Shown: positions 10,098-26,500 of the stretch, piece by piece | Numbering within the stretch: the first letter of the stretch is position 1 | Layout of the letters: each line of letters begins with the position of its first letter | Virus record (IMG/VR): IMGVR_UViG_3300037423_000582 | Coordinates: 3,716-67,715 of that record | DNA from: a virus | Lineage: Duplodnaviria; Caudoviricetes | DNA length: 64,000 nucleotides | Strand: one strand, 5' to 3' | Translations under genes and position numbers: made by a program | Notes under the pieces: generated by a model | What the model was told of the DNA's origin: nothing | Databases searched by the model: none | Seen by the model: only the letters and a program-made list of their open reading frames with translations

Positions 10098-11086
10098 GTA
10101 AAGAGTTTCGCCCTATGCTGGCCGGCACGCCGGACAGCAACGACGACATCAAGTTCCCTTGTCTGGCCAGCCCGAAGCTCGATGGCATCCGCGCGGCGAA
10201 CAAGAACGGCAAGCTGCTGTCGCGCTCGCTGAAGCTGATCCCGAACAAGCTGGTACAGAGCATCCTCAGCATGCCCGAGCTGCACGGCCTGGACGGCGAA
10301 CTGATCTGCGGTCCGGTGAACGATCCGAACGTCATGCAGAACACGTCGACTGTCGTGATGTCGATCGAGAAGCAGCAGCCGTTCGAGTTTCACGTGTTCG
10401 ATTTCTGGGACAGCACTGAAGGCAAGCGTGACCGCCTGATCCGAGCCGGCAGTGTGCTGCTGTCGATCCAGAAGCGGTGGCGCGACCTCGTCACCGTCCA
10501 GCGCCTGCTGGGTGCGCCGCGCGAGATCATGAGCCATCTTGAAAACTGTCCGCTGCGCTTGGTGCCACACAAGCTGATCGAGACGCTGGACGAGCTGGAA
10601 GCATTCGAGGCCGAGTGCCTGGAGGCCGGTTACGAGGGCGTGATGGTGTGCGCACCGGACGGCGCCTACAAGTACGGCCGCAGCACGGTGAAGGAAGGTG
10701 GGCTGCTCAAGCTGAAGCGCTTCTCGGATGCCGAGGCGATTGTCGTCGGCTTCGAGGAAGAAATGAAGAACGAGAATACCGCGCAGGTGAACGAGTTGGG
10801 CCGCACGAAGCGCAGCACGGCCAAGGCCGGTCTCACCGGCAAGGGCACGCTCGGCGCGTTCGTGTGCAAGCGTGTGTTCGTCAACGAGAAGGGCAAGTAC
10901 GTACTGTCCGACTACACCTTCAACATCGGCACCGGCATGACGGCCGAGTTTCGTGCCAGCGTGTGGGCGAACCGCGATGCGCACATGGGCGCCATCGTGA
11001 AGTTCAAGCACTTCGAGCATGGCGTCGTGGACGCGCCACGTCACCCGGTGTTCCTGGGCTTCCGTGCACCGGAAGATATGTCATGA
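10094..11086 (+). CDS. ATP-dependent DNA ligase
   Basis: Motif I SPKLDGIR, LDGEL, YEGVM, LLKLKRF, OB-fold tail RHPVFLGFR. Confidence 0.92.
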   Translation: MSKEFRPMLAGTPDSNDDIKFPCLASPKLDGIRAANKNGKLLSRSLKLIPNKLVQSILSMPELHGLDGELICGPVNDPNVMQNTSTVVMSIEKQQPFEFHVFDFWDSTEGKRDRLIRAGSVLLSIQKRWRDLVTVQRLLGAPREIMSHLENCPLRLVPHKLIETLDELEAFEAECLEAGYEGVMVCAPDGAYKYGRSTVKEGGLLKLKRFSDAEAIVVGFEEEMKNENTAQVNELGRTKRSTAKAGLTGKGTLGAFVCKRVFVNEKGKYVLSDYTFNIGTGMTAEFRASVWANRDAHMGAIVKFKHFEHGVVDAPRHPVFLGFRAPEDMS

Positions 11087-11508
11087 ATTCGAATGACGAG
11101 AACTTCGAATGGTACAAGTCCGGCGTGTATGTGGCACATGACTCTGCTGGTGTGCCCATGCTGGAGACCATGCAGAATTCAGCGCACGGTGCACGGGCGA
11201 GCTTGATTGGTCGGCTTCAATGCCGCTGGGAGCCACTGCGTGAGCAAGGGTACACAATCCAGGAATACGTGCCGGCCATCCCGGTCCTGACCGACGTGAT
11301 CAAGGTCGGCGATCAGGTGGCCGTGGCTACTGAGGCGCGCTGGTATTATCCGGCCGCTGGGGATGTCGCACCGCTGGGTGTTACTGTGCAGCTACTCACG
11401 CGCGGCGGTGTTGCCGTACGCGGCGTATGGAACGACCTGGGCGACTACATCGCATGGGCGCCGATGATCAAGCGCGACAAGGACCTGGAAGCGAGGTTAG
11501 GGCTATGA
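11083..11508 (+). CDS. hypothetical protein (two-part mosaic)
   Basis: ATGA overlap with the ligase stop. Confidence 0.6.
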   Translation: MNSNDENFEWYKSGVYVAHDSAGVPMLETMQNSAHGARASLIGRLQCRWEPLREQGYTIQEYVPAIPVLTDVIKVGDQVAVATEARWYYPAAGDVAPLGVTVQLLTRGGVAVRGVWNDLGDYIAWAPMIKRDKDLEARLGL

Positions 11509-11735
11509 GTACGACACCATTTCCTGCCGGGGCCGTTCCCGGCATCGTCGTAGAAGAACCGGCTGCGCCTGTCACGGCGCAGAGCAAACTTGATGAGGCC
11601 GTCGAGCTTATCATCCAGGCGCAGCGCTTCAACTCGAACATGCAGCGCAAGCACAAACTTGGCAGCGTCGAATGGCATGAGCATGAAGCCATCGACGACC
11701 GCCTGCACGATGCCCTCGCGGCGCTGGGGCAATGA
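11505..11735 (+). CDS. hypothetical protein
   Basis: GAGG SD; ATGA overlaps. Confidence 0.55.
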   Translation: MSTTPFPAGAVPGIVVEEPAAPVTAQSKLDEAVELIIQAQRFNSNMQRKHKLGSVEWHEHEAIDDRLHDALAALGQ

Positions 11736-12010
11736 TGAATCCGAGGCCCTATACCGTCCTGCTGCTGCGTCCGGACACTGACTGGGATGGCGTGCCGGCC
11801 GACTGGGTATTGCGCATGCACGTCGATGTGACTAGCGTTGACGCGACCGTCGTTAGGGAAGCGATCGAGGCTGCTATCTGGACGGCAGTTCGCAAATATT
11901 ACACAGGCCCTGATGGTGATCTGCTGGCTACGTTCGGCGACTTCGCCGTGCTCGCTGTCTTCCCCGGTCATGTGACCGATCTTTACGACCCTCGAAGGAG
12001 ATTGATTTGA
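11732..12010 (+). CDS. hypothetical protein
   Basis: ATGA overlap; 92-aa ORF. Confidence 0.6.
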   Translation: MMNPRPYTVLLLRPDTDWDGVPADWVLRMHVDVTSVDATVVREAIEAAIWTAVRKYYTGPDGDLLATFGDFAVLAVFPGHVTDLYDPRRRLI

Positions 12011-12612
12011 ACCTCACTGCTTACGTCCCGTTGGCCCTGCGTACCGAGAAGCAGCTACCCACTGTCGCCGCCCGGCTGTCGCATGCTGCACTGGGCCTAC
12101 TCACTGAAAACGGTGAGATCGTCACATCGGTCAAGCGCATTGTCATCTACAACAAACCGATGGATACGCCGGACGACAAGGGCAAGACTTTGCGCGATCA
12201 TATGGCCGAGGAAATCGGCGATGCGTTCTGGTATGTCGCCATCGCGACCGATGCGCTGATGCTCGATCCGGTATTGCTGCTGTACCCGTCGTCCGCCGAC
12301 AACGTGATCCGTCCGATCTCAGACCTGTCGTTCGAACTGGGTGGCTATGTTGGCCGGTTTGCCGATACCATTCGCTTTATGACGCACGGTATCGATGTCA
12401 CTCCGTTGTCGAATGAGCGCGTGATCCTGCGGAACTCACTGGCTAACATCGTGCGCATACTGAACCAGTTCTGCATCTCGCTGGAGATCGACCTGGGTAC
12501 CGTGCTGCAGGCGAACATCGACAAGCTGCGCGAGCGTTTCCCGAATGCGTACAGCGACGAAGCCGCGGAAGCCCGGCTTGACAAGGGCGGCCTGGACGCG
12601 CGCAACTCATGA
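12007..12612 (+). CDS. MazG-like NTP pyrophosphohydrolase
   Basis: LGLLTENGEI...MAEEIGDAFWYVA...ANIDKLRERFP; AAGGAG SD before a TTG start. Confidence 0.8.
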   Translation: MNLTAYVPLALRTEKQLPTVAARLSHAALGLLTENGEIVTSVKRIVIYNKPMDTPDDKGKTLRDHMAEEIGDAFWYVAIATDALMLDPVLLLYPSSADNVIRPISDLSFELGGYVGRFADTIRFMTHGIDVTPLSNERVILRNSLANIVRILNQFCISLEIDLGTVLQANIDKLRERFPNAYSDEAAEARLDKGGLDARNS

Positions 12613-12746
12613 TCCGCTGGCTGAAGTGGTGGCTCTGGGATTCGCGCCGGTGCAAGCATGAACCGGGTGAGTGGTACATGACCGATTACGGCATGGGCAA
12701 GGTGCGGTACTGTCGCAAATGTTTCCGCTGCATCGACCGCATCTAA
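12609..12746 (+). CDS. 45-aa Trp-rich, Cys/His metal-finger-like protein
   Basis: MIRWLKWWLWDSRRCKHEPG...YCRKCFRC; ATGA overlap. Confidence 0.5.
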   Translation: MIRWLKWWLWDSRRCKHEPGEWYMTDYGMGKVRYCRKCFRCIDRI

Positions 12747-12802
12747 GTCCTGGCTTCTTCATGCCGCGCGTGCGCGGCATCTGGAAACCGACTGGAGGAA
12801 AA

Positions 12803-13183
12803 ATGAACGAACAAGAGCAACCGGGTGCGCATCACCTGACGCCGGAGAACATCGCGGCGACCATCAAGGACCTGCGCGAGATCGAGGACGGCACCACGCT
12901 GTTTCCTGTCGAGAACCGCGACTGGTGCACCATGGCCGGCGTGCTGGCCCGGATCATCGAGCACCTCGCCCGCCGCGCAGAGCCGAGCGTAACCGAGCAG
13001 GTAGATGCCCGGCACGACAACTTGCGCGACAACATCGGGCAGGCCATTTCTGACTATATTGATGATTACACGGACGAAGTGGGTAATGTTTTAATCGTGT
13101 GCCGTGACGCGGATGAAATTGGTGCGTTGGTCGATAAAATCATGGCGTTGATCACCTCCAGCGCGGCACGGGAGAATCCATGA
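12803..13183 (+). CDS. hypothetical protein
   Basis: Strong SD GGAGG 6 nt before the ATG. Confidence 0.65.
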   Translation: MNEQEQPGAHHLTPENIAATIKDLREIEDGTTLFPVENRDWCTMAGVLARIIEHLARRAEPSVTEQVDARHDNLRDNIGQAISDYIDDYTDEVGNVLIVCRDADEIGALVDKIMALITSSAARENP

Positions 13184-13392
13184 CCTTCGAAAAAGCATCG
13201 TGGGCCGTTGGCCTGAACTTCGTGATCGGCGTGCTCGTGATGATCGCCATCGATGACGATGAACGGACCGTGTGGCGCTGGCTGATGCGGTGCCCGTATT
13301 TCCTACTGTTCGTGCTCGTGATGGAGTGCTGGCCGCTGCTGGTGCCGGCCATCCTGGTCAAGCGCCTCGTTGACGAGACGCACGGAGAATAA
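13180..13392 (+). CDS. small membrane protein (2 TM)
   Basis: Two hydrophobic stretches; ATGA overlap. Confidence 0.6.
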   Translation: MTFEKASWAVGLNFVIGVLVMIAIDDDERTVWRWLMRCPYFLLFVLVMECWPLLVPAILVKRLVDETHGE

Positions 13393-13445
13393 GGGCTCGT
13401 GCCGCGCGCCCGTCTCCAAGCGCGGCGAATCTACCAGGGAGTAAC

Positions 13446-14468
13446 ATGATCCATCCAACCGTTGGCCGCATCGTGTGGTACCGTCCGGACGAAGCAGATC
13501 TCAATGGCGGCGCCGAGCCGCCGATGCAGGTAGTTTTCGATGCAGATGGCCCGCAGCCACTGGCTGCGCAGATCGTCGCTGTGTATGGCCCGCGCATGGT
13601 GAGTGTGGTGCTGTACGATGCCGACGGCCGCCATTACGCGCGCACGAGCGTCATGCTGATGCAGGGCGACGCTGAAGACCCGCCAATGTCCGGCCGCTAC
13701 GTCGAATGGATGCCATACCAGCAGGGGCAGGCCAAGCGTCACGAGATCGGCAACACGGCCGGCAATATGATCAGCACGACGGCGGCCGCGTCGATCTCGC
13801 ACGGTGAATACCAGACCGAGATCGCGATCCAGGTGGCCGGTGCGACTGCGCCGCGCATTAAGCCCGAGGACGTGCTAGCCGCGATCGATAGCGAGACGTA
13901 CACCATCACGCCGTCTGGACGCACGACGATCTGCGAGTTGACGCTGACGAACGGCTTCACCGTGCGTGGCGAGTCGTCGGTCGTGAGCATGGAGAACTTC
14001 GACGAAGCCATCGGCCGCACCGAGGCGCGCAAGAAGGCGATCGACAAGGTGTGGGAGCTGGAAGGCTACCGCCTGATGCAGAAGCTGTATGAGCAGCGTA
14101 CGATGCCGGGCGATTCGGTCCGTGACGAGCGTGCCCGTATCGACCGGATCGCCCGCGTGTGCCACGAAGTGAACCGGGCCTACTGCGCCGCGCTGGGCGA
14201 CAATAGCCAGCCGGCATGGGACGATGCGCCGTCCTGGCAGCGCGAGTCGGTGCGCATGGGCGTCGACCTGCACCTGATGGGCGACTTCGGCCCGGAAGCC
14301 TCGCATCTGTCGTGGATGAACGAGAAGTACAACACTGGCTGGGTCTACGGCGAAGTGAAGGACCCGGAGAAGAAAGAGCATCCATGCCTCGTGCCGTTCG
14401 ACCAGTTGCCGAAGGAACAGCAGGCCAAGGATTATATTTTCCGCGCAGTCGTTCACGCACTGCGTTAA
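13446..14468 (+). CDS. three-domain fusion: unknown N-domain + phage gp49/66-family domain + RyR domain
   Basis: aa 1-98 PTVGRIVWY...EWMPYQ; aa 123-217 APRIKPED...TICELTLTNGFTVRGES...NFDEAIG...VWELEGY; aa 230-340 IARVCHEVNRAYC...SHLSW...GWVYG..KDPEKKEHPCLVPFDQLP.EQQAKD. Confidence 0.85.
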   Translation: MIHPTVGRIVWYRPDEADLNGGAEPPMQVVFDADGPQPLAAQIVAVYGPRMVSVVLYDADGRHYARTSVMLMQGDAEDPPMSGRYVEWMPYQQGQAKRHEIGNTAGNMISTTAAASISHGEYQTEIAIQVAGATAPRIKPEDVLAAIDSETYTITPSGRTTICELTLTNGFTVRGESSVVSMENFDEAIGRTEARKKAIDKVWELEGYRLMQKLYEQRTMPGDSVRDERARIDRIARVCHEVNRAYCAALGDNSQPAWDDAPSWQRESVRMGVDLHLMGDFGPEASHLSWMNEKYNTGWVYGEVKDPEKKEHPCLVPFDQLPKEQQAKDYIFRAVVHALR

Positions 14469-14473
14469 ACCGG

Positions 14474-14498
14474 GCCGGCCTTGCGCCGGCTTTCTTTT
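14474..14498 (+). terminator. intrinsic terminator
   Basis: GCCGGC-5-GCCGGC then TTTCTTTT, right after the stop at 14468. Confidence 0.7.
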
Positions 14499-14508
14499 GG
14501 AGCCTCTT

Positions 14509-14721
14509 ATGGCACGCTTTCAAATCGTCGTCGGCAACCTGGGCACGGTCATCGACACCGCGATCCACCTCCATGCCATCCGGTCGTTCAACGACTACAA
14601 GACCATGTCCATGATGGGCAAGGGTCGTGTCGGCGGCGAGTCGGTCACGATGTACGTGGACGGCGAGCCGGACCCGCACTTCACGTACGAGCCGCTGACC
14701 AACGAAGCCGACGGAGCATAA
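14509..14721 (+). CDS. hypothetical protein
   Basis: GGAG SD; followed by a terminator. Confidence 0.6.
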   Translation: MARFQIVVGNLGTVIDTAIHLHAIRSFNDYKTMSMMGKGRVGGESVTMYVDGEPDPHFTYEPLTNEADGA

Positions 14722-15069: not shown

Positions 15070-18000
15070 TCAATCGACCGCATTCGTCGCCGCAGACGCA
15101 TTACCAGCCGCATCGAACAGCGCGTTGGCGGGCATCGCGTTCAGGGCGAAGGTCTTGAACTGCTCCGCGCCACCGACCGTGCGCGCCGCCTCGCCCAGCT
15201 GCTCGATCGTCGGGCCGACCAGCGCGCCCACGCCCAGCCCGCCGCGATACACGTCCTTGGCAGCATCCACGCCGAACTGGCCGACACCGAACAGGCCCGC
15301 GCGCTGCACTTCGTAGAACAGGTAGTCGGATGCGTCCCAGCCCTTTTTCCAGTCCGGCTGGTCGCCGCCACCGACCAGCATGCCCTTGATCGTGTCGGCC
15401 GCCAGCATGAAGGGCACGTAGCCTGCCAGCGCGTAGGCCGGGCCGATGTTGCCGAAGCGGACCTCGTTGGCCACGCGCTTGAGGATCGTTTCCTGGAACG
15501 AGTAGACGAACTGCTTCAGGTGCGCGAGCAGCGCGAAGTGCGGATCGTTCATCCATATGGGCTTGTGCGCCGCGTTCGGCCGCAGGATCGCGCCATCGAC
15601 CCACTTGTTGATCGCCAGCGTCATCTTGTCGGCCGCTGCCTGGGCCTTGTCCGGCGCCATGTCGGCCGCTTCGAACTCACGCGCGGTCATCAAGGGCTGG
15701 CCATTCTTCACGCGGATCTCGTTCGGCTTGAAACCCAGTTCGGCCAGCCACCGTGGCGAGTGCGTCGAGGCCGTGCCGTCAGCATGACGGGCCAAAAAGC
15801 CTACAGCGGCTTGGGTTGCTGCAACCCTCATCGACGTGTTGTACTGCTCCATCAGGTTGTACTTGAAGAACGTATCGTTCAGTTTGCGGCCCCACGTGCT
15901 GGTCATGCCCTGGCTGAAGCTGGTGCCGAGGTTGTGCATCAGGACGGCGTTGTCGATCACACCCAGCTGCGCGGCCAGATCGGTCCAGCTGTCGGACTTG
16001 GCGTCCTTCCTGAAGTTCTTCGGCATCTCGGCGAAGCCGCGCTTCATCGCCGCGAACGTGTCGCGCATGCTGCCGCCGCGAACCAAGATGCCCATCGGGT
16101 CGATCACCGACGAGAAGATCGCCAGCGGTAACAGGCGCAGGTTCTGGTACACGATCGCATTGCCGAACGCGCGGCGCAGTTTCGGGTCGATCGAATCGCC
16201 CAGCGTGCCGTCCACGCCCTGAAGATAATCAGAAGCCAGTTGCAGCTGGTCCTTCGTCGCCCCTTGCTTTTCCGCCTCGCTCATCAGCCTGTGCAGCTCG
16301 CTGCTGTCGTCCTTGAAGCGGCGTGCCCATTCGGCCCGGCGCGTAGCCTGGGTGATGTAGCTGTTCAGCGTCTCGTACAGGTTCTTGTTGAGGAAGGGCG
16401 CCGCGTCTCTGTGTTCGATGAACTGCAACACGCGCTCCTTGCTGCTCTGCATGCCGGGACGGATCGTCTCGACTTGCAGGTCCGAGCCATCGGTGCGCGT
16501 GAGCGTAGCGATCACCTGATCGACCGAGCCCTTGAACTGGCCGGTGCTCACGTACTTCTGCAGCATGTCGCGGAACTCGTCCTTGTTGCGCAGGATCGTG
16601 TTCGCGTCCCACACGCGCGGGAAGTAATCCTTGCCGAAGCCCAGCGGGGCGATGTCCACACCCGCGTCGCGCATATACAGGAACGAGTCGTCGAGCACCT
16701 TGCGGATTGAGGCCACGGCGCGACGCTCGGCCGGTGTAGCACCCTTCAGGCCACGCTGCAGCGACTCCAGCGCGTCGGACACAATACCCGCGTCATGCTG
16801 GCCCAGCTCGGTGCCGAGGCGGTTCATGAACTCGCCGCGCTTGGCGCGCGCCGCCGGCAGGTAGCCCGGATCGTCGCCATGCTCGCCATGCAGCGGCGCA
16901 TAGACCTTGTCGGCCAGTTTGCCCAGCGCGTCGACGCCGGTGCTGCGCAGGCGCGCGTCGCCGGTGGCGGCCACGGCCGTCGCCAGTTTGCCGAGCGGCG
17001 CCACCATGTCCTTGAACTTCTCGACGTGGGCATTGCTGCCCTCGGCGAGTACGCGGGCGACGGCGCTGCGGTTCCTCATTTCCTTGCCGTACTCGCCGCT
17101 GTGGAAGTACTGCATGATGTGCTCGGCGCGCGCGTCGTTGGTCCAGATCCCCAGCGTCTTCCTGAAGAAGTCCGCCACGTGGCCCAGGATGCCGTCTGGG
17201 CGTGGCTGCAGCTTGAGCTTGCCGGCTGCCCAGAACTGGAACATGTAGGCGGCGCGCTCGTGCGGGTCGTCCAGCTGCTTGAGCGCGTCCGGCTCGCCGG
17301 CCAGCAAGTCCTTGAGCTGCTTGACCACACGCGGGCTGCTCGCGGCCTTCTCCAGCGGATGCGCATCGTCCAGCAGGCCGGTGTCGTGCAGCTTGGCGAA
17401 GAACGCATGCAGCGCCTCGTGGTAGCCTACGCTCATCGGGTCCAGGCTGTGGGTCGACACGCGGATCACGTCGGCGTTCAGGCCGCGCACCGTGCGCGTC
17501 GGGTCGTTGAGGAATTCACCCGCGTGCAGCAGCTTGGCGAACTCGACGTCGACCGTCTTGCCCAATACCTTCTCGATATACTCCTTCACCGGCAAGCGCG
17601 CACCGCTCGTGGTCGAGTTCCCCGGATGCATGCGCTGCATGCTGTAGGCGATGTCAGGGTGCGCCTCGATCAGCTTTCCCAGGCGCTCGTTGGCCACCTC
17701 CAGCACGGCGCGCGCGGACGTGTCGTGTTGATGAGGAAGGAGAGCATCAACGGCACGTTGTAAGCCACGGGTATCGTCGCTCACCTTCATCGCGCGGATC
17801 ACGTCGTTCACGTCACCCTTGCCCACCACGCGGTTGACGAAGTTCGACTTCGGCTGCTCGGGCGTCAAGCTGCCGTACTTGCGGTACAGGTCGTTGATGG
17901 TGCTGCTCACGCTGGCGGTGTCCTTGTCCTTCACGATCGCCGCCAGCTCGGCTTGATCGCCGATGCGCATCTGGTCGATCACACCGAGCAGGTGCTGGAC

Positions 18001-21000
18001 CTTCTTGCCCAGCGCGCGCTGCACCGCGGACTTGCCGGCGGCGAGCGTCGCGGCGCGGCTGGAGATCGCGCCCTTGATCTCGGCTGGCAGGCGGCCGTCG
18101 AAATGCGTGTCCGGCTCGAAGTTATCGGCGTGCAGCAGGTTGCCTTCGGGCCCGGCTTCCATGTTGCGGCTCGCGGCGAAGCGGTTGCCCAGCGCGTCAC
18201 TGTGCTCGGCGGCGGCCAGATGGACCTGGGCGTCGGGCGCTATCTCGGTCGCGCCGCCCCAGCTGCCGCTCTCCATGCTGCGCAGGCTGGTGAAGTCGCC
18301 CTCGCTATCGCCGGCCTTGCGCACGGCATTCGACTTGTCGTGCAGCTCGCCGCCTTCACGCCGGCGTGCCAGCTGCTCCTCGGCGCGCTCGTAGTTCTTC
18401 ATCGCCTCGCTGTACTCGTGCTTCAGCACGTTCTCGCGCATCGACGGGGCGCGCAGCACGCGGCCGGTCTCGTCGCGCAGCGGGCCGCGCTTGTCGATCT
18501 CGGCCTTGAGCTTGTTGCTCACCGCGCCCAGGCGCTCGGCCGCCACGGCCAGCGCGTGCGAGCCGCCCGGCCGCTTCTTCATGCCGTCGACCAGCTCGTC
18601 GCCCGGATCGTTGTCGCGCAGTACGCGGCTGCTCAGCTTGGCATCGATGCTGCGCAGTTCCTCGGCGTCGCCCATCTTGACCGCCGCCTCGCGCGCGTCA
18701 TACAGGCCCTGCAGGCGGCGCATGCCCTCGTCGGGCTTCACGCTGCCGGCCTTCTGCACCTCGCCCCACGTGACCGGCTTGCCGTCGCGGTAGGCGATCA
18801 CGGTCTCGTCCGGCACATGCAGCGGCTCGTCCGTGCCCAGGTGGTCCGCCAGCGCGGCCAGCCCCTCGGAGAACTGGCGCTGCAGGCGGCGCATCGGGTT
18901 CACGTCGTGCTCGTCGCGCGCCAGCATGTGCTCGGGCGCGAACATCCTGGTCAGCTTGAGCGCGTCGATCTTGACGTTCTCGTTCTCGCCCACGCGCAGG
19001 TCAATGCGGCTGGGCGAGTCCGGGTACTTGTGGGTGTCGAGCTTGAGGCGGTCGACGTCGCGCCAGCCCAGCGCGCCATGGTTGGCGTCCTCGGCCAGCA
19101 CGGCCACGTGGTTGTCCGGGTCGCCCTTCGTCATCGCGCGCAGCTGCTCGTCGCTCATCAGGTTCTCGCGCGCGTACTGGCGCGCGGACACCGCGCGCAC
19201 GGCGCGATCCGGATAGTCGGCTTGCATCTTCTGCACAATACGCGCGTACGCCGACGCGTCGTTGCCGTACTTCTGGCGGTGCGCCGCGTCGGACAGCGTG
19301 AACGTTACCGGCTCGTCCTTGTTCGCGCTGTAGTAATCGCGGCGCGTGCCCAGATCGGACGTGATGCCGGCATCCTCGTGGTACGCGAGGCCGTCCTCGC
19401 CCGGCGGGGCGTATTCGATGTCGTCCGGGTTCAGTTCGTCGGGACTGGCGCGGCGCTCCTCGGCGTGCAGCGCGTCCTGTGCGCGCTCGGTCTCCAGGCC
19501 CAGCTTGGCGGTCTCCAGCAGGTCGTCGGTATGGTCGCCGAAGTGCTCGCGCAGCGCGGACTCGATCTGGCGGCTCATGGCGATGCGCTGCTCGGGCGTC
19601 TTACCGTCGAGCGTAGCGCCGGACACGTATTCCTGCAGGTGCTTGGCCATCTGGTCGATCTGGTCCGGCGTCGCGCTGGCCTTGAGTTTGTCCGGCAGCG
19701 CCTCGCGGATCTTGTCGGTCAGCTTGGCCTGCGTGCTCATGCTGCCGTCGAGCTTGTTCACGGCGCGGAAGTAGTTGTTCGTCGCGTCCTTGTCGGCGTC
19801 GCCCAGCACGCGCTCGTGCAGCTGGGTCAGCACGTTCGTGGTGTCGGCGCCGAACAGCTTCTGTAGGTGGCCCGCCACGTCCGGGTCGACCGTGCCGGTC
19901 TTCTGCATATGGTCCATCACGCGGCGCAGGCCGGTCGTCACGGACTGCAGCGCGGTGTCGTTCAGCTGCGGGAACTGCTTTCCGATGTGCGGCGCCACCA
20001 CGTCGGCGATCGCCCGGTCGGCGCCATCGGCCACCTCGGACTTGAGGGGAGTGCCTTCGCCCGTGTCCTCGGTGCGCTTCTTCGACGCGGCGTTGAAGAA
20101 GTCCTCGGTCAACTTGCCCAGCTTGGCCGTGCCCTCCTGGGCCAGCTTCACGCCCGCCACGATGGCCTGATTGGTGCGGTCGGACAGGTCGTTCGCGGCC
20201 TGGGCCAGCTTGGCGCGGTTTTCCTCGGACAGCGCGCCGTCCTTCATCAGCTCGTCGACCCAGCCCTTCGTCGTTTCGACGCGGGCGTCGTCCGCCGCGC
20301 GCAGCATCTCGCCCTGCTTCTCGGGCGGCGCGGCGCGCAGTGCGTCGACGTCGATCACGTCCTTGCCCGCCGCGATCTTCTCGGCCGCGTCGTCACCACG
20401 CACGAACGTGTTGCGGATGCGGTCGACGAGGGATGCCGGGGGCGCGGTGGGTGCCTCGGCAGTCGGCGCGGGTGCGGGTGCTTCTTCCTTTATCGGACGC
20501 CCGGCCGGTGCCTCGGCCTTGCCGTGCAGTGCGTGCCCCACGAGGCCGACGCCCGCGAACGGGACGCCCAGCGCGCCACCGGCCACGGCCGCATCCAGCA
20601 TGCGCGTGTCGTCATTACTGGTATCGCGGTTCGGGTTCAGGTGGTCCTCGGCCGTCGTACTGATCTTCTCGGCCGCTGCGCCCGCTAGCGCGTTGCCGCC
20701 GACGCCTTCGGCTAGGATGCCGGCCTTCGACGCGGCGCCGACGCCTGCACCCAGCAGCTTGCCGCCCATCAGTTGCGGCACGGCGTTCATGGCCAGCGCG
20801 CGGCCCGTACCTTCGAGCGCGGCGGTGCCCAGGCGGTCGACCGCGCTGTTGTTCGCCATCACGGCTGGGTCAGCCTGCTGGCGCTGCAGCGCGCCGCCGG
20901 TCTCGAACGGGGCGACCGCCGCGGTGCCCGCCAACAGCGGTGAGACCGCGCCCCTCGTCAGCGCGGCCGCGCCCGCCGCACCCAGTCCGAGGCCGACCAG

Positions 21001-21327
21001 TGGCACGGCTTGGCCGGCGAGGCCCGCCACGTAGCTGCCCGCGTTGCGCAGGCCCGTGGACAGGTCCGGCGCCTGCGTCACCTGCCGCCAGTCCGTCACG
21101 GCCGGCGCCTGCGTCGCCGCCAGTTCCTCGGCCGCCTTGGCCTGGGCGTACTGCTGCTGGGCGAAGTCCTGTGCGCCCAGCGCCTCGCTGACGCCGCCGG
21201 CCAGCGCGTGGAGCTGGCCACCGGCCGCCGTCATGCCTTGGCGCAGGCCGCGCGAAAAGCTGTTGCCACCTTCGTCTGCCACGGCCGGCGCGGCCGGGGT
21301 CATGAGTGCGTCGGTCAGGTTTCGCAT
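15070..21327 (-). CDS. giant internal virion (ejection) protein with a zincin-like HExxH motif
   Basis: About 2085-aa ORF ending the structural block; Gly/Ala hydrophobic N-terminus; YHEALH at 17407-17424 followed by ERAAYMF. Start 21330 or 21327. Confidence 0.75.
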   Translation of the reverse strand: MRNLTDALMTPAAPAVADEGGNSFSRGLRQGMTAAGGQLHALAGGVSEALGAQDFAQQQYAQAKAAEELAATQAPAVTDWRQVTQAPDLSTGLRNAGSYVAGLAGQAVPLVGLGLGAAGAAALTRGAVSPLLAGTAAVAPFETGGALQRQQADPAVMANNSAVDRLGTAALEGTGRALAMNAVPQLMGGKLLGAGVGAASKAGILAEGVGGNALAGAAAEKISTTAEDHLNPNRDTSNDDTRMLDAAVAGGALGVPFAGVGLVGHALHGKAEAPAGRPIKEEAPAPAPTAEAPTAPPASLVDRIRNTFVRGDDAAEKIAAGKDVIDVDALRAAPPEKQGEMLRAADDARVETTKGWVDELMKDGALSEENRAKLAQAANDLSDRTNQAIVAGVKLAQEGTAKLGKLTEDFFNAASKKRTEDTGEGTPLKSEVADGADRAIADVVAPHIGKQFPQLNDTALQSVTTGLRRVMDHMQKTGTVDPDVAGHLQKLFGADTTNVLTQLHERVLGDADKDATNNYFRAVNKLDGSMSTQAKLTDKIREALPDKLKASATPDQIDQMAKHLQEYVSGATLDGKTPEQRIAMSRQIESALREHFGDHTDDLLETAKLGLETERAQDALHAEERRASPDELNPDDIEYAPPGEDGLAYHEDAGITSDLGTRRDYYSANKDEPVTFTLSDAAHRQKYGNDASAYARIVQKMQADYPDRAVRAVSARQYARENLMSDEQLRAMTKGDPDNHVAVLAEDANHGALGWRDVDRLKLDTHKYPDSPSRIDLRVGENENVKIDALKLTRMFAPEHMLARDEHDVNPMRRLQRQFSEGLAALADHLGTDEPLHVPDETVIAYRDGKPVTWGEVQKAGSVKPDEGMRRLQGLYDAREAAVKMGDAEELRSIDAKLSSRVLRDNDPGDELVDGMKKRPGGSHALAVAAERLGAVSNKLKAEIDKRGPLRDETGRVLRAPSMRENVLKHEYSEAMKNYERAEEQLARRREGGELHDKSNAVRKAGDSEGDFTSLRSMESGSWGGATEIAPDAQVHLAAAEHSDALGNRFAASRNMEAGPEGNLLHADNFEPDTHFDGRLPAEIKGAISSRAATLAAGKSAVQRALGKKVQHLLGVIDQMRIGDQAELAAIVKDKDTASVSSTINDLYRKYGSLTPEQPKSNFVNRVVGKGDVNDVIRAMKVSDDTRGLQRAVDALLPHQHDTSARAVLEVANERLGKLIEAHPDIAYSMQRMHPGNSTTSGARLPVKEYIEKVLGKTVDVEFAKLLHAGEFLNDPTRTVRGLNADVIRVSTHSLDPMSVGYHEALHAFFAKLHDTGLLDDAHPLEKAASSPRVVKQLKDLLAGEPDALKQLDDPHERAAYMFQFWAAGKLKLQPRPDGILGHVADFFRKTLGIWTNDARAEHIMQYFHSGEYGKEMRNRSAVARVLAEGSNAHVEKFKDMVAPLGKLATAVAATGDARLRSTGVDALGKLADKVYAPLHGEHGDDPGYLPAARAKRGEFMNRLGTELGQHDAGIVSDALESLQRGLKGATPAERRAVASIRKVLDDSFLYMRDAGVDIAPLGFGKDYFPRVWDANTILRNKDEFRDMLQKYVSTGQFKGSVDQVIATLTRTDGSDLQVETIRPGMQSSKERVLQFIEHRDAAPFLNKNLYETLNSYITQATRRAEWARRFKDDSSELHRLMSEAEKQGATKDQLQLASDYLQGVDGTLGDSIDPKLRRAFGNAIVYQNLRLLPLAIFSSVIDPMGILVRGGSMRDTFAAMKRGFAEMPKNFRKDAKSDSWTDLAAQLGVIDNAVLMHNLGTSFSQGMTSTWGRKLNDTFFKYNLMEQYNTSMRVAATQAAVGFLARHADGTASTHSPRWLAELGFKPNEIRVKNGQPLMTAREFEAADMAPDKAQAAADKMTLAINKWVDGAILRPNAAHKPIWMNDPHFALLAHLKQFVYSFQETILKRVANEVRFGNIGPAYALAGYVPFMLAADTIKGMLVGGGDQPDWKKGWDASDYLFYEVQRAGLFGVGQFGVDAAKDVYRGGLGVGALVGPTIEQLGEAARTVGGAEQFKTFALNAMPANALFDAAGNASAATNAVD

Positions 21328-23291
21328 CACTGTGCCTTCAGGTTGTCATAGATGTCGGTCGGCTGGCCGCCGATGCGGTCGGCTCCCACTTTGTTCAGGT
21401 AGCGCGCCGGGATCACGCGGCCCTTCGCGGCGCCGCGTGGGATCACGTAGTCGCCCGAGCTGTTCTTCTGCAGGCCAATGAGGTCGTGCGGCATGACCTC
21501 GCCGATGACGTCGGGCTTCCACGGCAGGATGTTCGAGGCGTCGGCATTGACCTTGGAGGCCAGATCCGCACCAGCGATCAGACGCTCGCGATCCGGCTTG
21601 GACAGGTCCTTGATGCTGTCGACACCCAGCGCGGCGGCGCTGCGCTGGATGCCAACCAGCGCGGCGTTCTTGGCCGCCACGTCGACCTGCGGTGCGCCAT
21701 TCTTGTCGACGCCCGTGGTGAAGCGTGCAGTCAGCGCGTCGTCCAGGTGCTTCTCGGCCGCCTCACCCTGCGTGAACTGGTCGTTCGTCACGTTGCGCTG
21801 GTATTCGCGGTTGACGTTGCCCTGCTCGCGCATGGCATTGTACATGCCGAGCTGGTTCGTCGCGCGCTGGCCGGCGAGCGTGAAGTCCTGGCCACGCATC
21901 GTCACATTGGCTTGCTGGTCATTCTGGCGGTCGCCCGACTTGGTGCGGATCAGGTTGTCGCGCGCGTTGCTGGCAGCCTGGATCGCGGCCGGCGAACCGG
22001 ATCGCTCTGCGGCCTGCAGCTCGTCGGTCAGTCGCATTACGTCCGGGTCCTGCATGATGAGGTTCTGTGCGTGCTGGCGCGCTGCCTGCTCGCGGTAGGA
22101 CTGGTCGGCGGCTTCCAGCTGCGCAGTACGCTGGGCCATGTGCTGGTCGGTATAGCGCTGCAGGTCTGCCGATGCAGGCGCGGTGTTGGCCAGCACGCGG
22201 GTATCGCCCGGTCCCACGCGCATACCGACGCTGTCGGCGCCAACCTGCTTCATGCGATCGTTGAATGCGGCCACATCGGCTGGAACGATCGGTGCGACCG
22301 GCGTGGTCGCTGCGCCCGGCGCCTTCACGACCGGCGCGGTAGGCGCGGCCGGGTGCTCCCCTCTCCATTTTGCGGCAATCGTATCGAACGCCGTGGCATT
22401 CGGATTGAACCCGCGCTTACGCAGGCCGACGTCCGTATCCTCGAAATAATCTGGCGAGCCACCCAGCTTCTCATTCACCCAGTTGGCGCCGCGACGGATA
22501 CTGTCGGCCAGATGGTCGGCCGCCAAATCACCTGCCTGCTGGCCGAAGTAGGCGCCGGCTGCGCCGCCGGCGATCGTGCCTGCGACTGGTACGGCCGAAC
22601 CTGCAGTAGCACCAATCGAACCCAGCGTCAAACCGCCCACCGTACCGGCTGCACTGCGCATCGTGTCACGCGCGAACAACTGCGCCTTGAATGCAGCGTC
22701 ATCGTCGTAGTTACCTTTGAAAGCATCCCAGTGCGACACGAATGGCAAGGCGGCCATGATGCCATTGGCTGCACCGCTGCGAAGGGTCGGTAACTCGGCG
22801 CCCGTCGCGCGCACTGCCTTACCGGCTGCTCGCCCCCATGCTTCCGGCCCGGTCGGGCTGGAAGGTGGCGCACCGCTGCCGCCTGCACGGGCTGCATTGA
22901 ACGCGGCACGCTCGGCGCTCATACCGCCGGCCGGCACATTCGGGTTGGCGCCCACGCCCGGCGCGGGCTGGAACGGTGGCGGGTTCACGGTGCCTGCCGT
23001 GTGCACGTCGGACAGCGTCGGGATCGGCGGCTCGGGCTGGAACGGGCCGGCCACACCAGGACGGATCTCATCCGTCAGGGTCGGGATCGGTGGCTGCGGC
23101 GCCACGGGCGCGCGCATGGTGACTTGGGCGCGGTCGGCCAGCGACGGGTCGATCTGTGGCAGCGGCGTGGTGCCAGCGGCGGCAGCGGCGGGCTGGGGTG
23201 CGCCCACGCCCGGCATGCGCAGGCCGCGCGCGGCGGCCGTGACCTTGTCGACTGCCGTGCTGGCTGCGTTGCGGAGGGAGTTGAAGTCCAT
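21327..23291 (-). CDS. putative internal virion/ejection protein
   Basis: 654 aa; Pro-rich PPIPTL repeats; Gly-zipper GTVGGLTLGSIGATAG...AGGAAGAYFG; position before the giant gene. Confidence 0.6.
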   Translation of the reverse strand: MDFNSLRNAASTAVDKVTAAARGLRMPGVGAPQPAAAAAGTTPLPQIDPSLADRAQVTMRAPVAPQPPIPTLTDEIRPGVAGPFQPEPPIPTLSDVHTAGTVNPPPFQPAPGVGANPNVPAGGMSAERAAFNAARAGGSGAPPSSPTGPEAWGRAAGKAVRATGAELPTLRSGAANGIMAALPFVSHWDAFKGNYDDDAAFKAQLFARDTMRSAAGTVGGLTLGSIGATAGSAVPVAGTIAGGAAGAYFGQQAGDLAADHLADSIRRGANWVNEKLGGSPDYFEDTDVGLRKRGFNPNATAFDTIAAKWRGEHPAAPTAPVVKAPGAATTPVAPIVPADVAAFNDRMKQVGADSVGMRVGPGDTRVLANTAPASADLQRYTDQHMAQRTAQLEAADQSYREQAARQHAQNLIMQDPDVMRLTDELQAAERSGSPAAIQAASNARDNLIRTKSGDRQNDQQANVTMRGQDFTLAGQRATNQLGMYNAMREQGNVNREYQRNVTNDQFTQGEAAEKHLDDALTARFTTGVDKNGAPQVDVAAKNAALVGIQRSAAALGVDSIKDLSKPDRERLIAGADLASKVNADASNILPWKPDVIGEVMPHDLIGLQKNSSGDYVIPRGAAKGRVIPARYLNKVGADRIGGQPTDIYDNLKAQ

Positions 23292-23306
23292 GTCGTTCTC
23301 TCTTTA

Positions 23307-25289
23307 TCAGGCGGTGTGGCTGGTGCTGTCGGTGGTGGTATAGGTGTTGCTGATCGAGCCGGACTGGCTGTAGTTGAAAGCCACGTTGCGGCCATACGAG
23401 TTCGACAGGGTGGAAGACATCGACGCCGAGATCGAGCCGGTCAGGTTGACAGCGGACAGTGCGGAAGCGGCCATCTGCGCAGCTGTCTGGGAGCCGGCCT
23501 TGGTCGCCTCGATCAGCATGCCGGCCTTCTGTATCATGGCCGACAGGTTCGCCTGCGACGTCTGGATCAGGTTGTCGGCGACGGCACGCTGGTAGTTCAC
23601 CTCGGCGTTGTACGCACCGGTCTCGGCGCTCATGCGGCCGGTCTGCCCCTCGATCTGCGCGCTGTACAACTGGACCGTCTTGCCGAACACGTCGGCGGTC
23701 GAGTTCATGCGCGCCGCTTCCGCATCGTTCAGGGTCTTGAACACGTCCGAGCGCAGGCGGAACAGGTCCATCGGCACGTCGCGGCCGATCTTGATCTCCA
23801 TGTTCTTCGCCTCGACCTTGGCCTCGACCAGCGCGCGGAAGCCCTGCACCTGGGCGGCGTAGGCGTCGGACTGGGCGCGGAAGCCCTCGACCTTGGCCAC
23901 CTCGGCCTTCACGCGCGTGGCGTAGCCGTCGTACTCCGCGGCCTTGGCCTGCACGGTCTTGCCGTAGGCGTCGACCTGGGCACCGAACGCTTCGATCTGG
24001 GTCTTGTTGATCTGCGCCTGTGCGTTGGCGGCATCGACCTGCACGCGGTAGGTGTCGATCACGGTCTTGGCCGCCTCGACGCGCGCCTTGTAGATGTCGA
24101 TGTTCTGCTGGTTGAGCTGGCCGATCAGGGTCTGAGCCTGCACCTGCGTGCGGAAGTTCTCAAGCTTGGTCAGCTCGGCCTGGGTCGCGGCCTTCCACTG
24201 CTCGACCTTGGCAGCGTACGCCTGGATGTCGGCGACGTAGCGCTGCACGGTGGTCTGGTAGATCTGGATCGCCGTCTCCTGTGCGAAGCGCGCGGCATCG
24301 TATGCGCGCTGGGCGAGCTGGTTGGCGTAGGTGATCATGGTCGACTCGACCTTGAACGCCTCGTCGAATGCGAAGCGGCGGTTCTCCTGCTCCAGCTCGG
24401 CCTGCTTGATGGCGATGTCGCGGTTCGCCGTGCTGATCGCCGCCGCCGCATCCTGCGTGGCCTTGGCCAGTTCCTGTACCAGCATGCCGCTCGGCTTGGC
24501 GAAGCCGCGCCGCGCGAACACGTTCATGGCGTCCTTGGCGGCGCGGCCGGCGTTGATAGTCTCGCGCGAGCGGGCACGGTCCCAGATGGCCGCCTCGACG
24601 GTCGGGGTCAAGCCGGTACCGCCGTTGTTGACCATGTCGAGCAGGCGCGCACGCAGCGCGTCGAGCAGGCTGGAGGCATAGGTCGGCTCGACGAACGCGA
24701 ACGTGTTCCGGGCCGCGTCGGGCGTGCCCGGCAGGATCGGCGAGAAGTTCGGGATCGACAGCAGCGGCGTGTCCGGCACCGTGATGTTCAGCAGGGTCGG
24801 TACGGTCGGCAGCGTGACGGTCGGTGTTGCAGGAAGTGCAACAGTTCCCAGCGTCGGCGCGGCCGGCGCGGCGGTGCTGAGCGCGGCCGGCGCGGCGATG
24901 TCCAGGTTGATCGCTGGCAGGTTCGCCGTGAAGGTCGGCGCCGTGCCCACGTCCAGCGCGGCGATCGAGGCCATCGTCGGCTCGACAGGGGCCGCAGGAA
25001 CGACGTAGGTGAGGTTTGCGGGCACGGATGGGGCCGCAGGGGGCGCGAACGCGCCGATCGTCCTGGTGACGCCGGAAATGGCCCCGGAAACGCTCGGCAG
25101 GGTCGCCAGCGTCGTCGCATTGGTCTTGAGGCTGTCCAGCAGGGCGTTCGCCTTGTCGACGGCGTTGCTGGCGTAGTTCGTGGCGTTGGTCCAGCCGTTC
25201 GACACGAGGTCGCCCGCCCGCGAGCTGGAAGTCAGGTCTACGTTCGCGGGCGGGTCCGGATAGGACAGGGAGGTGATCGGCAGGGACAT
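23307..25289 (-). CDS. virion structural protein (Pro-rich N-terminus, long coiled coil)
   Basis: 660 aa; AAGGA SD; structural-block position. Confidence 0.6.
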   Translation of the reverse strand: MSLPITSLSYPDPPANVDLTSSSRAGDLVSNGWTNATNYASNAVDKANALLDSLKTNATTLATLPSVSGAISGVTRTIGAFAPPAAPSVPANLTYVVPAAPVEPTMASIAALDVGTAPTFTANLPAINLDIAAPAALSTAAPAAPTLGTVALPATPTVTLPTVPTLLNITVPDTPLLSIPNFSPILPGTPDAARNTFAFVEPTYASSLLDALRARLLDMVNNGGTGLTPTVEAAIWDRARSRETINAGRAAKDAMNVFARRGFAKPSGMLVQELAKATQDAAAAISTANRDIAIKQAELEQENRRFAFDEAFKVESTMITYANQLAQRAYDAARFAQETAIQIYQTTVQRYVADIQAYAAKVEQWKAATQAELTKLENFRTQVQAQTLIGQLNQQNIDIYKARVEAAKTVIDTYRVQVDAANAQAQINKTQIEAFGAQVDAYGKTVQAKAAEYDGYATRVKAEVAKVEGFRAQSDAYAAQVQGFRALVEAKVEAKNMEIKIGRDVPMDLFRLRSDVFKTLNDAEAARMNSTADVFGKTVQLYSAQIEGQTGRMSAETGAYNAEVNYQRAVADNLIQTSQANLSAMIQKAGMLIEATKAGSQTAAQMAASALSAVNLTGSISASMSSTLSNSYGRNVAFNYSQSGSISNTYTTTDSTSHTA

Positions 25290-25324
25290 GATGTTCCTTT
25301 ATCAGATGCAGCAGTTTAGAGTTT

Positions 25325-26500
25325 CTACCCGGAAAATACAAACGTCTGGGTCGTGACCACGTCCTGGGGCGGCTGCTCTGCCATCGCGGGCGTGACATGG
25401 ACGACGCAGAAGGGCACGGCATCATTCGGCGCGGCGCGGGCCAGCCCGACGTTGCCGCGCCACTGTTTGGTCTGCCCACTGATCGTGTAGCTGCCGTTCA
25501 GGCTCACCACGACCTTGCCGTCGGGCGAGGTCAGGCCCATCCGGGACGGCGCGGTGGCGTTTGACCAGTTCGTGTTCGCCTTGCCGTTCCAGCTGAAACC
25601 ACCGCCGGTGTTGAGGGTGCCCTTGACGGTGTTGCCATCACTGGTGACGGTGATCGCCTTGCTGGGGTAGGTGCCGCCCGAGGTATAGGACGGCAGCTGC
25701 GGCTGGTCGGTGCGGCTGGCCCATTTCGCCGCCCGTGTAACCCAGCCGATGGCCGGCGTCACGCCTGTGAACGGGTTGGTTAGCGCCGTGTTCGGGTTGC
25801 TGTCGTACTGCTCCAGGGAGCCGCACAGCACATGGCCATCGGGCGACATGCCGATGACCACGGCATTGCGGCGCTGGAGCGCCCAGTTGCCACCATTGTC
25901 CATCTGGGTATAGCCGTTGTAGTCGTCCCATACGAATGCGTCGCCGCCCTGCGTGCCGCCGCCGATGATCACGGATGGGCCGGTGGGCTTCAGGCCGCCG
26001 GGGATCGTCGTGTGCACCGAGATACTTACTGCCACGGAGGAACCAACAGTTACGAAGTCATGCATGGTGCCATCGACATCGACCGATGCGCCGCCGGTCG
26101 GCGTGGTGCTGGTTGACCACGTGGGCGACGGGACGTGCGCGGACGATGGCGCCGAACTCGGCTCGCGTGTCGTGACCGTGAGCCGTACGCTGCTCTTGAG
26201 CGTGATGGTGTCGGCCAGGGTGGCAAAACCCTTATAGTGCTGCACGCTGTCGGTGAGATCCTGCAGCGCGTCGCGCTCCTGTTGTGGGACGCTGGCCGGT
26301 ACGTCGATATGGATATCGTGGTGGCCGAACATGGACGACACGGTGATCGTGACGCCGTTCGGCAGGCCCACGCTGCGCGACAACACCTGCAGGTTGTTCA
26401 GCCGCATGGCCAGCAGCATCTGGTCCAGCAGGTTGCGCCCGATGCCGAGATAGTCGAAAGCGGCTTCGCGATCACCGCTGAACCGTTTACGCTCGGCCAT
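25325..26500 (-). CDS. putative tail-associated protein
   Basis: Start MAERKRF overlaps the upstream stop; Thr/Gly-rich beta-type C-terminal half. Confidence 0.55.
   Translation of the reverse strand: MAERKRFSGDREAAFDYLGIGRNLLDQMLLAMRLNNLQVLSRSVGLPNGVTITVSSMFGHHDIHIDVPASVPQQERDALQDLTDSVQHYKGFATLADTITLKSSVRLTVTTREPSSAPSSAHVPSPTWSTSTTPTGGASVDVDGTMHDFVTVGSSVAVSISVHTTIPGGLKPTGPSVIIGGGTQGGDAFVWDDYNGYTQMDNGGNWALQRRNAVVIGMSPDGHVLCGSLEQYDSNPNTALTNPFTGVTPAIGWVTRAAKWASRTDQPQLPSYTSGGTYPSKAITVTSDGNTVKGTLNTGGGFSWNGKANTNWSNATAPSRMGLTSPDGKVVVSLNGSYTISGQTKQWRGNVGLARAAPNDAVPFCVVHVTPAMAEQPPQDVVTTQTFVFSG

Follow-up and report, generated by a model that had tools for sequence, protein, structure and literature searches.

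A phage protein joining predicted Acb4 and RyR sponge domains to a recurrent sponge-associated barrel, a candidate counter-defense family

A gene of a Caudoviricetes virus (IMG/VR record IMGVR_UViG_3300037423_000582) probably encodes a modular counter-defense protein, in which an Acb4 sponge and an RyR sponge are combined with a third, independent N-terminal module, the N domain. The 340-residue open reading frame (ORF) lies at 13446-14468 on the + strand of the analyzed stretch of 64,000 nucleotides, referred to here as the window, which covers positions 3,716 to 67,715 of the record. The record is complete, spans 67,715 bp and carries direct terminal repeats. The success of the defense systems CBASS (cyclic oligonucleotide-based antiphage signaling system) and Thoeris depends on phage sponges, and to our knowledge only about eight sponge families have been characterized to date. 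In the proposed mechanism, the phage-made protein would soak up host immune second messengers. The middle Acb4 domain would act as a tetramer sequestering CBASS cyclic dinucleotides of the 3'3'-cyclic GMP-AMP (3'3'-cGAMP), cyclic UMP-AMP (cUA) or cyclic di-AMP (cAA) type, and the C-terminal RyR domain as a dimer sequestering the Thoeris signals 3'- and 2'-cyclic ADP-ribose (3'cADPR and 2'cADPR) and most probably leaving them intact. The N-terminal barrel would neutralize a further immune signal or component outside the range of Acb4 and RyR, probably as a ring-shaped homo-oligomer. Domain identities, folds, conserved ligand residues, fusion and neighborhood statistics and module swapping form the direct basis of this proposal; from these we infer ligand binding, oligomeric states and the role of the N domain.

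Three folded modules and two predicted sponges

The full-length AlphaFold2 model, built with 60 relatives, showed a mean predicted local distance difference test score (pLDDT) of 91 and three folded units (residues 1-102, 119-219 and 224-340). The pLDDT fell below 50 at residues 103-111 and dipped to 73-82 around residues 211-230, near residue 220. The predicted template modeling score (pTM) of the full-length model was 0.46, and the three domains are therefore predicted to have no fixed packing against one another. Three linker-joined modules had already been proposed in a first-pass annotation made from the sequence alone, and its boundaries (1-98, 123-217 and 230-340) lie within a few residues of the modeled units. 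The ORF and its modules are:

13446-14468, + strand: ORF of 340 residues, read from the sequence
13446-13751, + strand: N-terminal module, residues 1-102, a five-stranded small beta-barrel (Tudor/SH3-like) with a C-terminal helix (AlphaFold2)
13752-13799, + strand: linker 1, residues 103-118, disordered and Ala/Ser/Thr-rich (pLDDT)
13800-14102, + strand: Acb4-family domain, residues 119-219 (PF13876, Phage_gp49_66), a predicted cyclic-dinucleotide sponge (Pfam, phmmer, Foldseek)
14103-14114, + strand: linker 2, residues 220-223 (pLDDT dip; the similarity of relatives P0003 and P0004 ends here)
14115-14468, + strand: RyR Repeat12-like domain, residues 224-340 and stop codon (PF02026; RyDEP or RyR Tad), a predicted 3'cADPR/2'cADPR sponge (Pfam, the RyDEP structure 35TM, gp68)

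The assignments of the middle and C-terminal domains were confirmed by profile search, PF13876 and PF02026 both scoring above cut-off, and membership of the middle domain in the Acb4 family is solid. Pfam returned nothing in the first 120 residues. PF13876 matched residues 138-214 over the whole 82-position profile (E 2.4e-23; score 82.8 bits, cut-off 27). This family, linked in the first-pass annotation to the anti-CBASS sponge Acb4, is indeed the Acb4 family; Acb4 of phage SPO1 is a tetrameric 3'3'-cGAMP sponge (PDB 9E4W), and 3'3'-cGAMP was bound by 8/8 diverse homologues tested, several of which carry unexplained extensions (PMC11722364). A phmmer comparison of the module with 9E4W gave E 1e-5. 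Structural comparison agreed: the module model contains the alpha-beta-beta-beta-alpha core of SPO1 Acb4 and superimposed on 9E4W with a root-mean-square deviation of 1.2 Å over 63 columns at 35% identity (Foldseek probability 1.00). Five of the ten 3'3'-cGAMP contacts of SPO1 Acb4 are kept, K36 as R159 and F48, V56, F62 and I66 as F171, V179, F185 and I189; N63, a backbone contact, aligns with D186. Counting against a sponge reading of this module, the guanine-reading E49 is replaced by T172, and the phosphate contacts Y57, T70 and K81 by V180, E193 and E204. Because contact residues are changed, the ligand preference of the module may differ from that of SPO1 Acb4.

The C-terminal module matched PF02026 at residues 283-329 (E 5e-11, 43.1 bits against a cut-off of 27.4), and its model matched RyR Repeat12 structures in Foldseek. 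Phage PF02026 proteins are RyDEP proteins acting against Thoeris (PMC13232231). The founding member, RyDEP of mycobacteriophage DyoEdafos, is a glycosidase of the inverting type, able to open both 2'cADPR and 3'cADPR (PDB 35TM), whereas of eight other homologues none cleaved these signals, six showed binding and two, those characterized in detail, were nanomolar sponges (PMC13232231). The cleavage of these glycocyclic ADP-ribose (gcADPR) signals, attributed to phage RyR-domain proteins in the first-pass annotation, thus holds for the founding RyDEP and fails for the eight other homologues. The module was 54% identical to Pectobacterium phage CB1 gp68 ("RyR Tad"; E 5e-44), a dimeric 3'cADPR sponge with a dissociation constant of 43 nM that blocks type I Thoeris (10.64898/2026.06.04.730250). 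All six gp68 ligand residues are kept, H129/W132, K147/H154 and K170/D171 corresponding to H287/W290, K305/H312 and K328/D329.

We consider it improbable that the module is a glycosidase cleaving gcADPR as RyDEP does. RyDEP matched residues 233-336 (35TM; phmmer E 1.8e-10), and the alignment shows no variation at its H75, W78, H100 and D117, so that the catalytic dyad H75/D117 is present as H287/D329. Among the RyDEP homologues, however, conservation of this H/D dyad did not predict catalysis, and 0/8 cleaved despite conserved residues (PMC13232231). The module is also only about 34% identical to RyDEP, against 54% to the sponge gp68, and examination of the neighboring genes found no NARP1 NAD+-salvage genes flanking the fusion gene. 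Q54, among the residues mutated in the RyDEP study (PMC13232231), corresponds to V269 here and to Ala in five other aligned relatives, in a part where the alignment is less certain. Since the nearest characterized relative is a sponge and Q54 is apparently absent, the RyR module more likely sequesters gcADPR than cleaves it, a choice that residues alone cannot settle.

Fusion partners, neighbors and module exchange

Two-domain Acb4+RyR proteins number in the hundreds, forms of about 196-250 residues making up most of the best 120 of 496 matches, and occur in Vi01-like Salmonella phages, Vibrio phages and others. This combination is already known and frequent; the new part is the three-module form with a sponge-associated barrel. 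Two of the RyDEP homologues above, H6 and H8, are Acb4-RyR proteins of which only the RyR parts were cloned, the Acb4 part going unmentioned in the main text (PMC13232231). That anti-signal modules are often fused, as stated in the first-pass annotation, was also verified: Tad2-Acb4 and Sequestin-Acb4 fusions are documented, fused sponges can act against two systems at once (10.1101/2025.07.12.664507), and dual activity has been shown for the fused sponge Ab09 gp59 (10.64898/2026.06.04.730250). Three-module relatives of the window protein were found at 40-80% identity (P0002, P0005, P0006, P0009, P0011, P0040, P0046 and P0066; proteins and loci of the comparison set carry P and L numbers).

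Among syntenic relatives the third module is exchanged. P0002 (N+Acb4+RyR) and P0003 (N+Acb4 and an unassigned module) share the gene order of ligase, MazG-like gene, small genes, fusion gene and one small ORF, with the large reverse-strand virion gene next where the contig reaches (P0002). The N and Acb4 domains are kept at about 80% identity in these relatives, while RyR is swapped for Sequestin (P0004) or for the unassigned module (P0003). Up to residue 213, P0003 and P0004 share 86% identity; beyond it they are unrelated, the break falling directly after the Acb4 domain. In one phage lineage, the third position has thus held RyR, Sequestin or an unassigned domain while N and Acb4 stayed. 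Because RyR and Sequestin both trap 3'cADPR, the swap looks like an exchange of equivalent parts. The module swapping also suggests that the N domain may cover something other than cyclic dinucleotides and 3'cADPR. The domain that replaces RyR in P0003 (residues 214-350, L089:5640-6050) is 137 residues long, and searches of Pfam, PHROGs and the PDB returned no match for it; judged by its fusion in the same way as the N domain, it is a further candidate for an anti-signal module.

The exchange also bears on whether the 340-residue protein serves counter-defense at all. Its gene ends a replication and nucleotide-metabolism module with a ligase and a MazG-like pyrophosphatase, as would suit some other nucleotide-related role in phage replication. 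Such a role is nevertheless very improbable: both named families have experimental anti-defense activity, their ligand residues are kept, and relatives carry Sequestin, a proven sponge, at the same position.

An exhaustive HMMER search placed at least 2,093 representative clusters in the N family at E<=1e-3. The family is mostly standalone, at about 95 residues, and many members are single-domain proteins of about 90-125 residues, 61 of the best 150 representatives being no longer than 125. IMG/VR contained at least 551 N-family loci, of which the best 80 were analyzed; 66 of these 80 encode standalone N proteins of 81-128 residues. Within fusions the N domain was always N-terminal, and its partners were repeatedly sponges. 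Sequestin was found in 9, Tad2 in 6 and Acb4 in 5 of 55 long representatives. The 120 best N-family proteins of at least 220 residues contained Acb4 (74), Tad2 (7), RyR (7) or Sequestin (5), amounting to 90/120 overall with two such domains in three proteins. Proteins combining N and RyR exist as well, for example in a Pseudoduganella prophage. Further stretches lack assignment in this set: the C-terminal part has no Pfam domain in 27 of the 120 (e.g. P0224, P0271, P0281 and P0323), and in others at least 100 residues separate N from Acb4 (P0379), where there may be further unrecognized modules.

The same families recurred as neighbors. Hidden Markov models built in this work for Acb4, Tad2, Sequestin and RyR located a sponge domain fused to N or no more than 4 kb away in 24/80 viral loci, with Acb4 in 18 of these 24. 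All 33 of the sponge domains concerned were on the strand of the N gene, and 22/33 lay within 400 nt of it. For scale, and not as a formal random-gene control, about 2% of cultured phage records match an Acb4+RyR query. In two loci (L053:3998-5066 and L073:3980-5122), N, Acb4 and RyR are three adjacent same-strand frames in the order of the fusion, and in L022 Acb4 is followed by N and RyR. These split and joined forms are evidence that the genes have fused or come apart within the set. The first-pass annotation had put the N domain forward as a counter-defense candidate by guilt of fusion alone; recurrence of four sponge families, both fused and neighboring, has much strengthened that case.

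A census of 150 flanking ORFs at the 80 loci recovered terminase, portal, endolysin, integrase, HNH and polymerase genes and no fixed synteny, so the N gene reads as a mobile accessory gene. A role as a virion-module component, considered for its location near terminase and portal genes in phages PA8 and Sopo, was rejected on the heterogeneity of these neighbors. Among cultured phages, tblastn detected the N domain in only three records representing two phages, Pseudomonas phage PA8 (gp15) and Xanthomonas phage Sopo. PA8 gp15 (L091:2995-3801) consists of the N domain and about 165 residues without assignment; its gene follows a terminase gene and that of a 773-residue protein within the head-gene region, a context unlike that in the window. 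A weak match (E 2.4e-4) to an N-domain hidden Markov model built in this work, at L001:18843-19106, in the gene 114 region of DyoEdafos, may be a distant N-like protein in a RyDEP-encoding phage. A 70-residue BFVD protein with a neighboring accession (A0A5J6TH43) was the second-best fold match of the N module, with a template modeling score of 0.75 on the target.

Fold and possible roles of the N-terminal barrel

AlphaFold2 modeled the N module, marked by the motifs PTxGRxVWY and EWMPYQxGQA, as a small barrel of five strands with a helix after it (pLDDT 91.7). No Pfam model matched it, the only PHROG match was phrog_2293 (function unassigned), and the protein Atlas yielded no informative relative. 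PF24729 is given as a precomputed domain for three N-family proteins and was not reproduced on rescanning P0274 and P0287. Searching all PDB sequences with an N-family profile of 62 sequences returned nothing below E 0.86, and no sequence link was found in this search to the solved sponge and anti-Thoeris families Tad1, Tad2, Acb2, Lockin, Sequestin, TadIV-1 and Tad3. Foldseek gave no match at E<=0.001 in either PDB or BFVD, and a wide VIA search of the PDB gave generic Tudor, PWWP and KOW barrels as weak best matches (Z 5.9). Nothing in the PDB sequence or fold searches linked the module to Lockin, which is likewise beta-rich and unannotated. The absence of a fold match in these searches does not by itself place the module outside the families named. 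Identity with the N-terminal domain of CB1 gp68 was considered and rejected on sequence comparison (hhalign probability 0.2). Across the family, the polar and aromatic residues R8, W11, Q73, W88, Y91, Q92 and Q95 are strictly conserved.

Co-folding of four N-domain copies predicted a head-to-tail ring, with an interaction score (ipSAE) of 0.68; the best of 3 controls reached 0.02. Between runs, at least 95% of contacts were shared, and the pLDDT of the partner was 80 or higher. In calibration, this mark was reached by 20/30 solved same-chain pairs and 1/23 solved single chains; the calibration used two copies and their own alignments, so these counts hold only roughly for the four-copy co-fold. 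The model supports formation of a homo-oligomer by the N domain.

We tentatively propose that the N barrel (PTxGRxVWY ... EWMPYQxGQA) founds a new, widespread phage counter-defense family acting on a signal or component beyond those covered by Acb4 and the gcADPR sponges; this may well be so, at slightly less than an even chance. Candidate targets under this proposal are histidine-ADP-ribose (His-ADPR), cyclic trinucleotides, the Pycsar signals cyclic CMP and cyclic UMP (cCMP/cUMP) and cyclic oligoadenylate (cOA), or the domain might shield the phage from Panoptes-type guards. Several observations weigh against it. The family is acidic (median isoelectric point 5.6), although a basic pocket is usual for sponges. 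The co-fold score reports the confidence of the model in its own prediction rather than a measurement, and conserved positions were not significantly enriched at the modeled interface (10/25, p = 0.17). There is also an analogy: the N-terminal beta domain of CB1 gp68, although unrelated to N, showed no detectable activity against type I Thoeris and serves dimerization (10.64898/2026.06.04.730250).

That analogy points to a barrel with no target of its own, which would assemble or stabilize the attached sponges and raise their oligomeric order or avidity. The gp68 domain forms a domain-swapped dimer interface, N-domain self-association is predicted by the co-fold, and N is always N-terminal in its fusions. 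We consider this role rather unlikely. Standalone members predominate (66/80 viral loci; 61 of the best 150 representatives), and N genes often stand separately beside sponge genes, so there is no scaffolding in cis. The strictly conserved polar and aromatic motif looks better suited to binding than to packing, and the gp68 domain is not detectably related to the N module.

Inhibition of a protein is a further alternative, the target being a defense sensor or effector, or else a Panoptes-type guard, which fires once decoy nucleotides have been depleted by sponges. Proteins that contain Acb4 are triggers of Panoptes (10.64898/2026.06.04.730250), and N occurs preferentially with Acb4 (74/120 long forms; 18/24 sponge-linked loci). 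The phage anti-Thoeris proteins Tad3-Tad8 can bind ThsB or ThsA directly (PMC13728456), and Tudor/SH3-like barrels are classic peptide-binding folds. However, the fold match is weak and generic, and N also pairs with Sequestin, Tad2 and RyR in the absence of Acb4, partners for which Panoptes triggering is not reported. We therefore regard protein inhibition as unlikely. Should the proposed counter-defense role of the barrel prove true, further new modules would be represented by the unannotated C-terminal regions seen in other N-family fusions, the third module of P0003 among them.

Genome setting and comparison with known systems

A rightward module with genes for a DNA polymerase, an ATP-dependent ligase and a MazG-like pyrophosphatase has the fusion gene as its last large member. 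The fusion gene faces a leftward structural module whose first gene encodes a 2,086-residue virion protein. Features around the gene are:

12007-12612: MazG-like pyrophosphatase, between the ligase and the fusion gene
13436-13441, + strand: Shine-Dalgarno sequence AGGGAG, 4 nt before the ATG, read from the sequence
14472-14492, annotated as far as 14502, + strand: terminator-like GC-rich hairpin followed by a T run, 3' of the stop codon (consensus scan only)

We judge the gene to be real, since full-length relatives match the protein at E 1e-72 to 1e-180 (40-80% identity). The database gene call (P0001) is 331 residues long and starts about 9 codons further in, which cuts into the conserved start. 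The ATG at 13446 was taken as the real start because the protein and its close relatives share the N-terminal residues MI.PT.GR.VWY. Of the two expression signals claimed in the first-pass annotation, the Shine-Dalgarno sequence was read directly and stands, and a functional terminator is only plausible. The hairpin has 8 pairs, 6 of them G-C, followed by TCTTTT, but the scan as a whole performed at chance level (3 found against 2.0 expected from shuffling).

Six small ORFs lie between the ligase and the fusion gene (11083-13392, + strand; 141, 77, 92, 45, 126 and 70 residues), of which the 45-residue ORF is Cys-rich and zinc-ribbon-like and the 70-residue ORF hydrophobic. A Pfam scan of the small ORFs flanking the fusion gene in the window identified no family. 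Directly past the hairpin is a 74-residue ORF (14497-14721, + strand) with its own GGAG and no family match, and ORFs of similar size lie 3' of the fusion gene in relatives (L090:6058-6267 and L089:6214-6399). The G+C content is 65-70% across 16000-28000 of the window, the region of the large virion protein gene and its neighbors, against about 60% in the remainder of the genome. The locus had no megablast match among cultured phages.

Individual modules have well-characterized counterparts. Acb4 of Bacillus phage SPO1 shares the full-length Pfam match, the core at 1.2 Å, and F48, F62, I66 and V56, with K36 replaced by Arg; it differs in E49, Y57, T70 and K81, all changed here, and in that the domain of the window protein is the middle one of three modules. 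Gp68 of Pectobacterium phage vB_PatP_CB1 (10.64898/2026.06.04.730250), which is homologue H7 of the RyDEP paper, has a 54% identical RyR Repeat12-like domain with the same six mutated ligand residues, and both proteins carry an extra small N-terminal beta domain. It is, however, a two-domain protein of 183 residues without Acb4, and no relationship was detected between its N-terminal domain and the N module. RyDEP of mycobacteriophage DyoEdafos (gp78, PDB 35TM) belongs to the same Pfam family and shares H75, W78, H100 and D117. In contrast to the RyR module, it is a single-domain glycosidase encoded inside a NARP1 NAD+ salvage operon, and the module is only about 34% identical to it, with Val at the position of Q54.

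CBASS and Thoeris sponges are likewise combined in one polypeptide in Tad2-Acb4 of Pasteurella phage Pm86, in Sequestin-Acb4 of Pseudomonas phages YH6 and Ab09 (gp59), and in H6 and H8, dual activity being experimental for Pm86 and Ab09 gp59. These two-domain fusions are without the third N-terminal module present here. The locus thus offers a ready test case, with three modules in one protein and natural relatives that exchange the third for an equivalent sponge at the same site.

For the N-barrel family as a whole, which our analysis puts forward as a well-founded candidate for a new counter-defense family, the closest precedent is Sequestin (PF21825), a small phage family whose members mostly stand alone and recur in fusions with known sponges, and which was found through its fusion to Tad2 and Acb4 (10.1101/2025.07.12.664507). 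Sequestin has a Pfam model and forms an all-helical dimer, whereas the N domain is a beta-barrel without such a model; a Pfam-based fusion search like the one used for Sequestin would presumably miss the N domain for this reason. If the N domain is active, it would represent a new counter-defense family and a handle for finding more through its unannotated fusion partners. Its pattern of fusions and neighbors matches the one that led to Sequestin.

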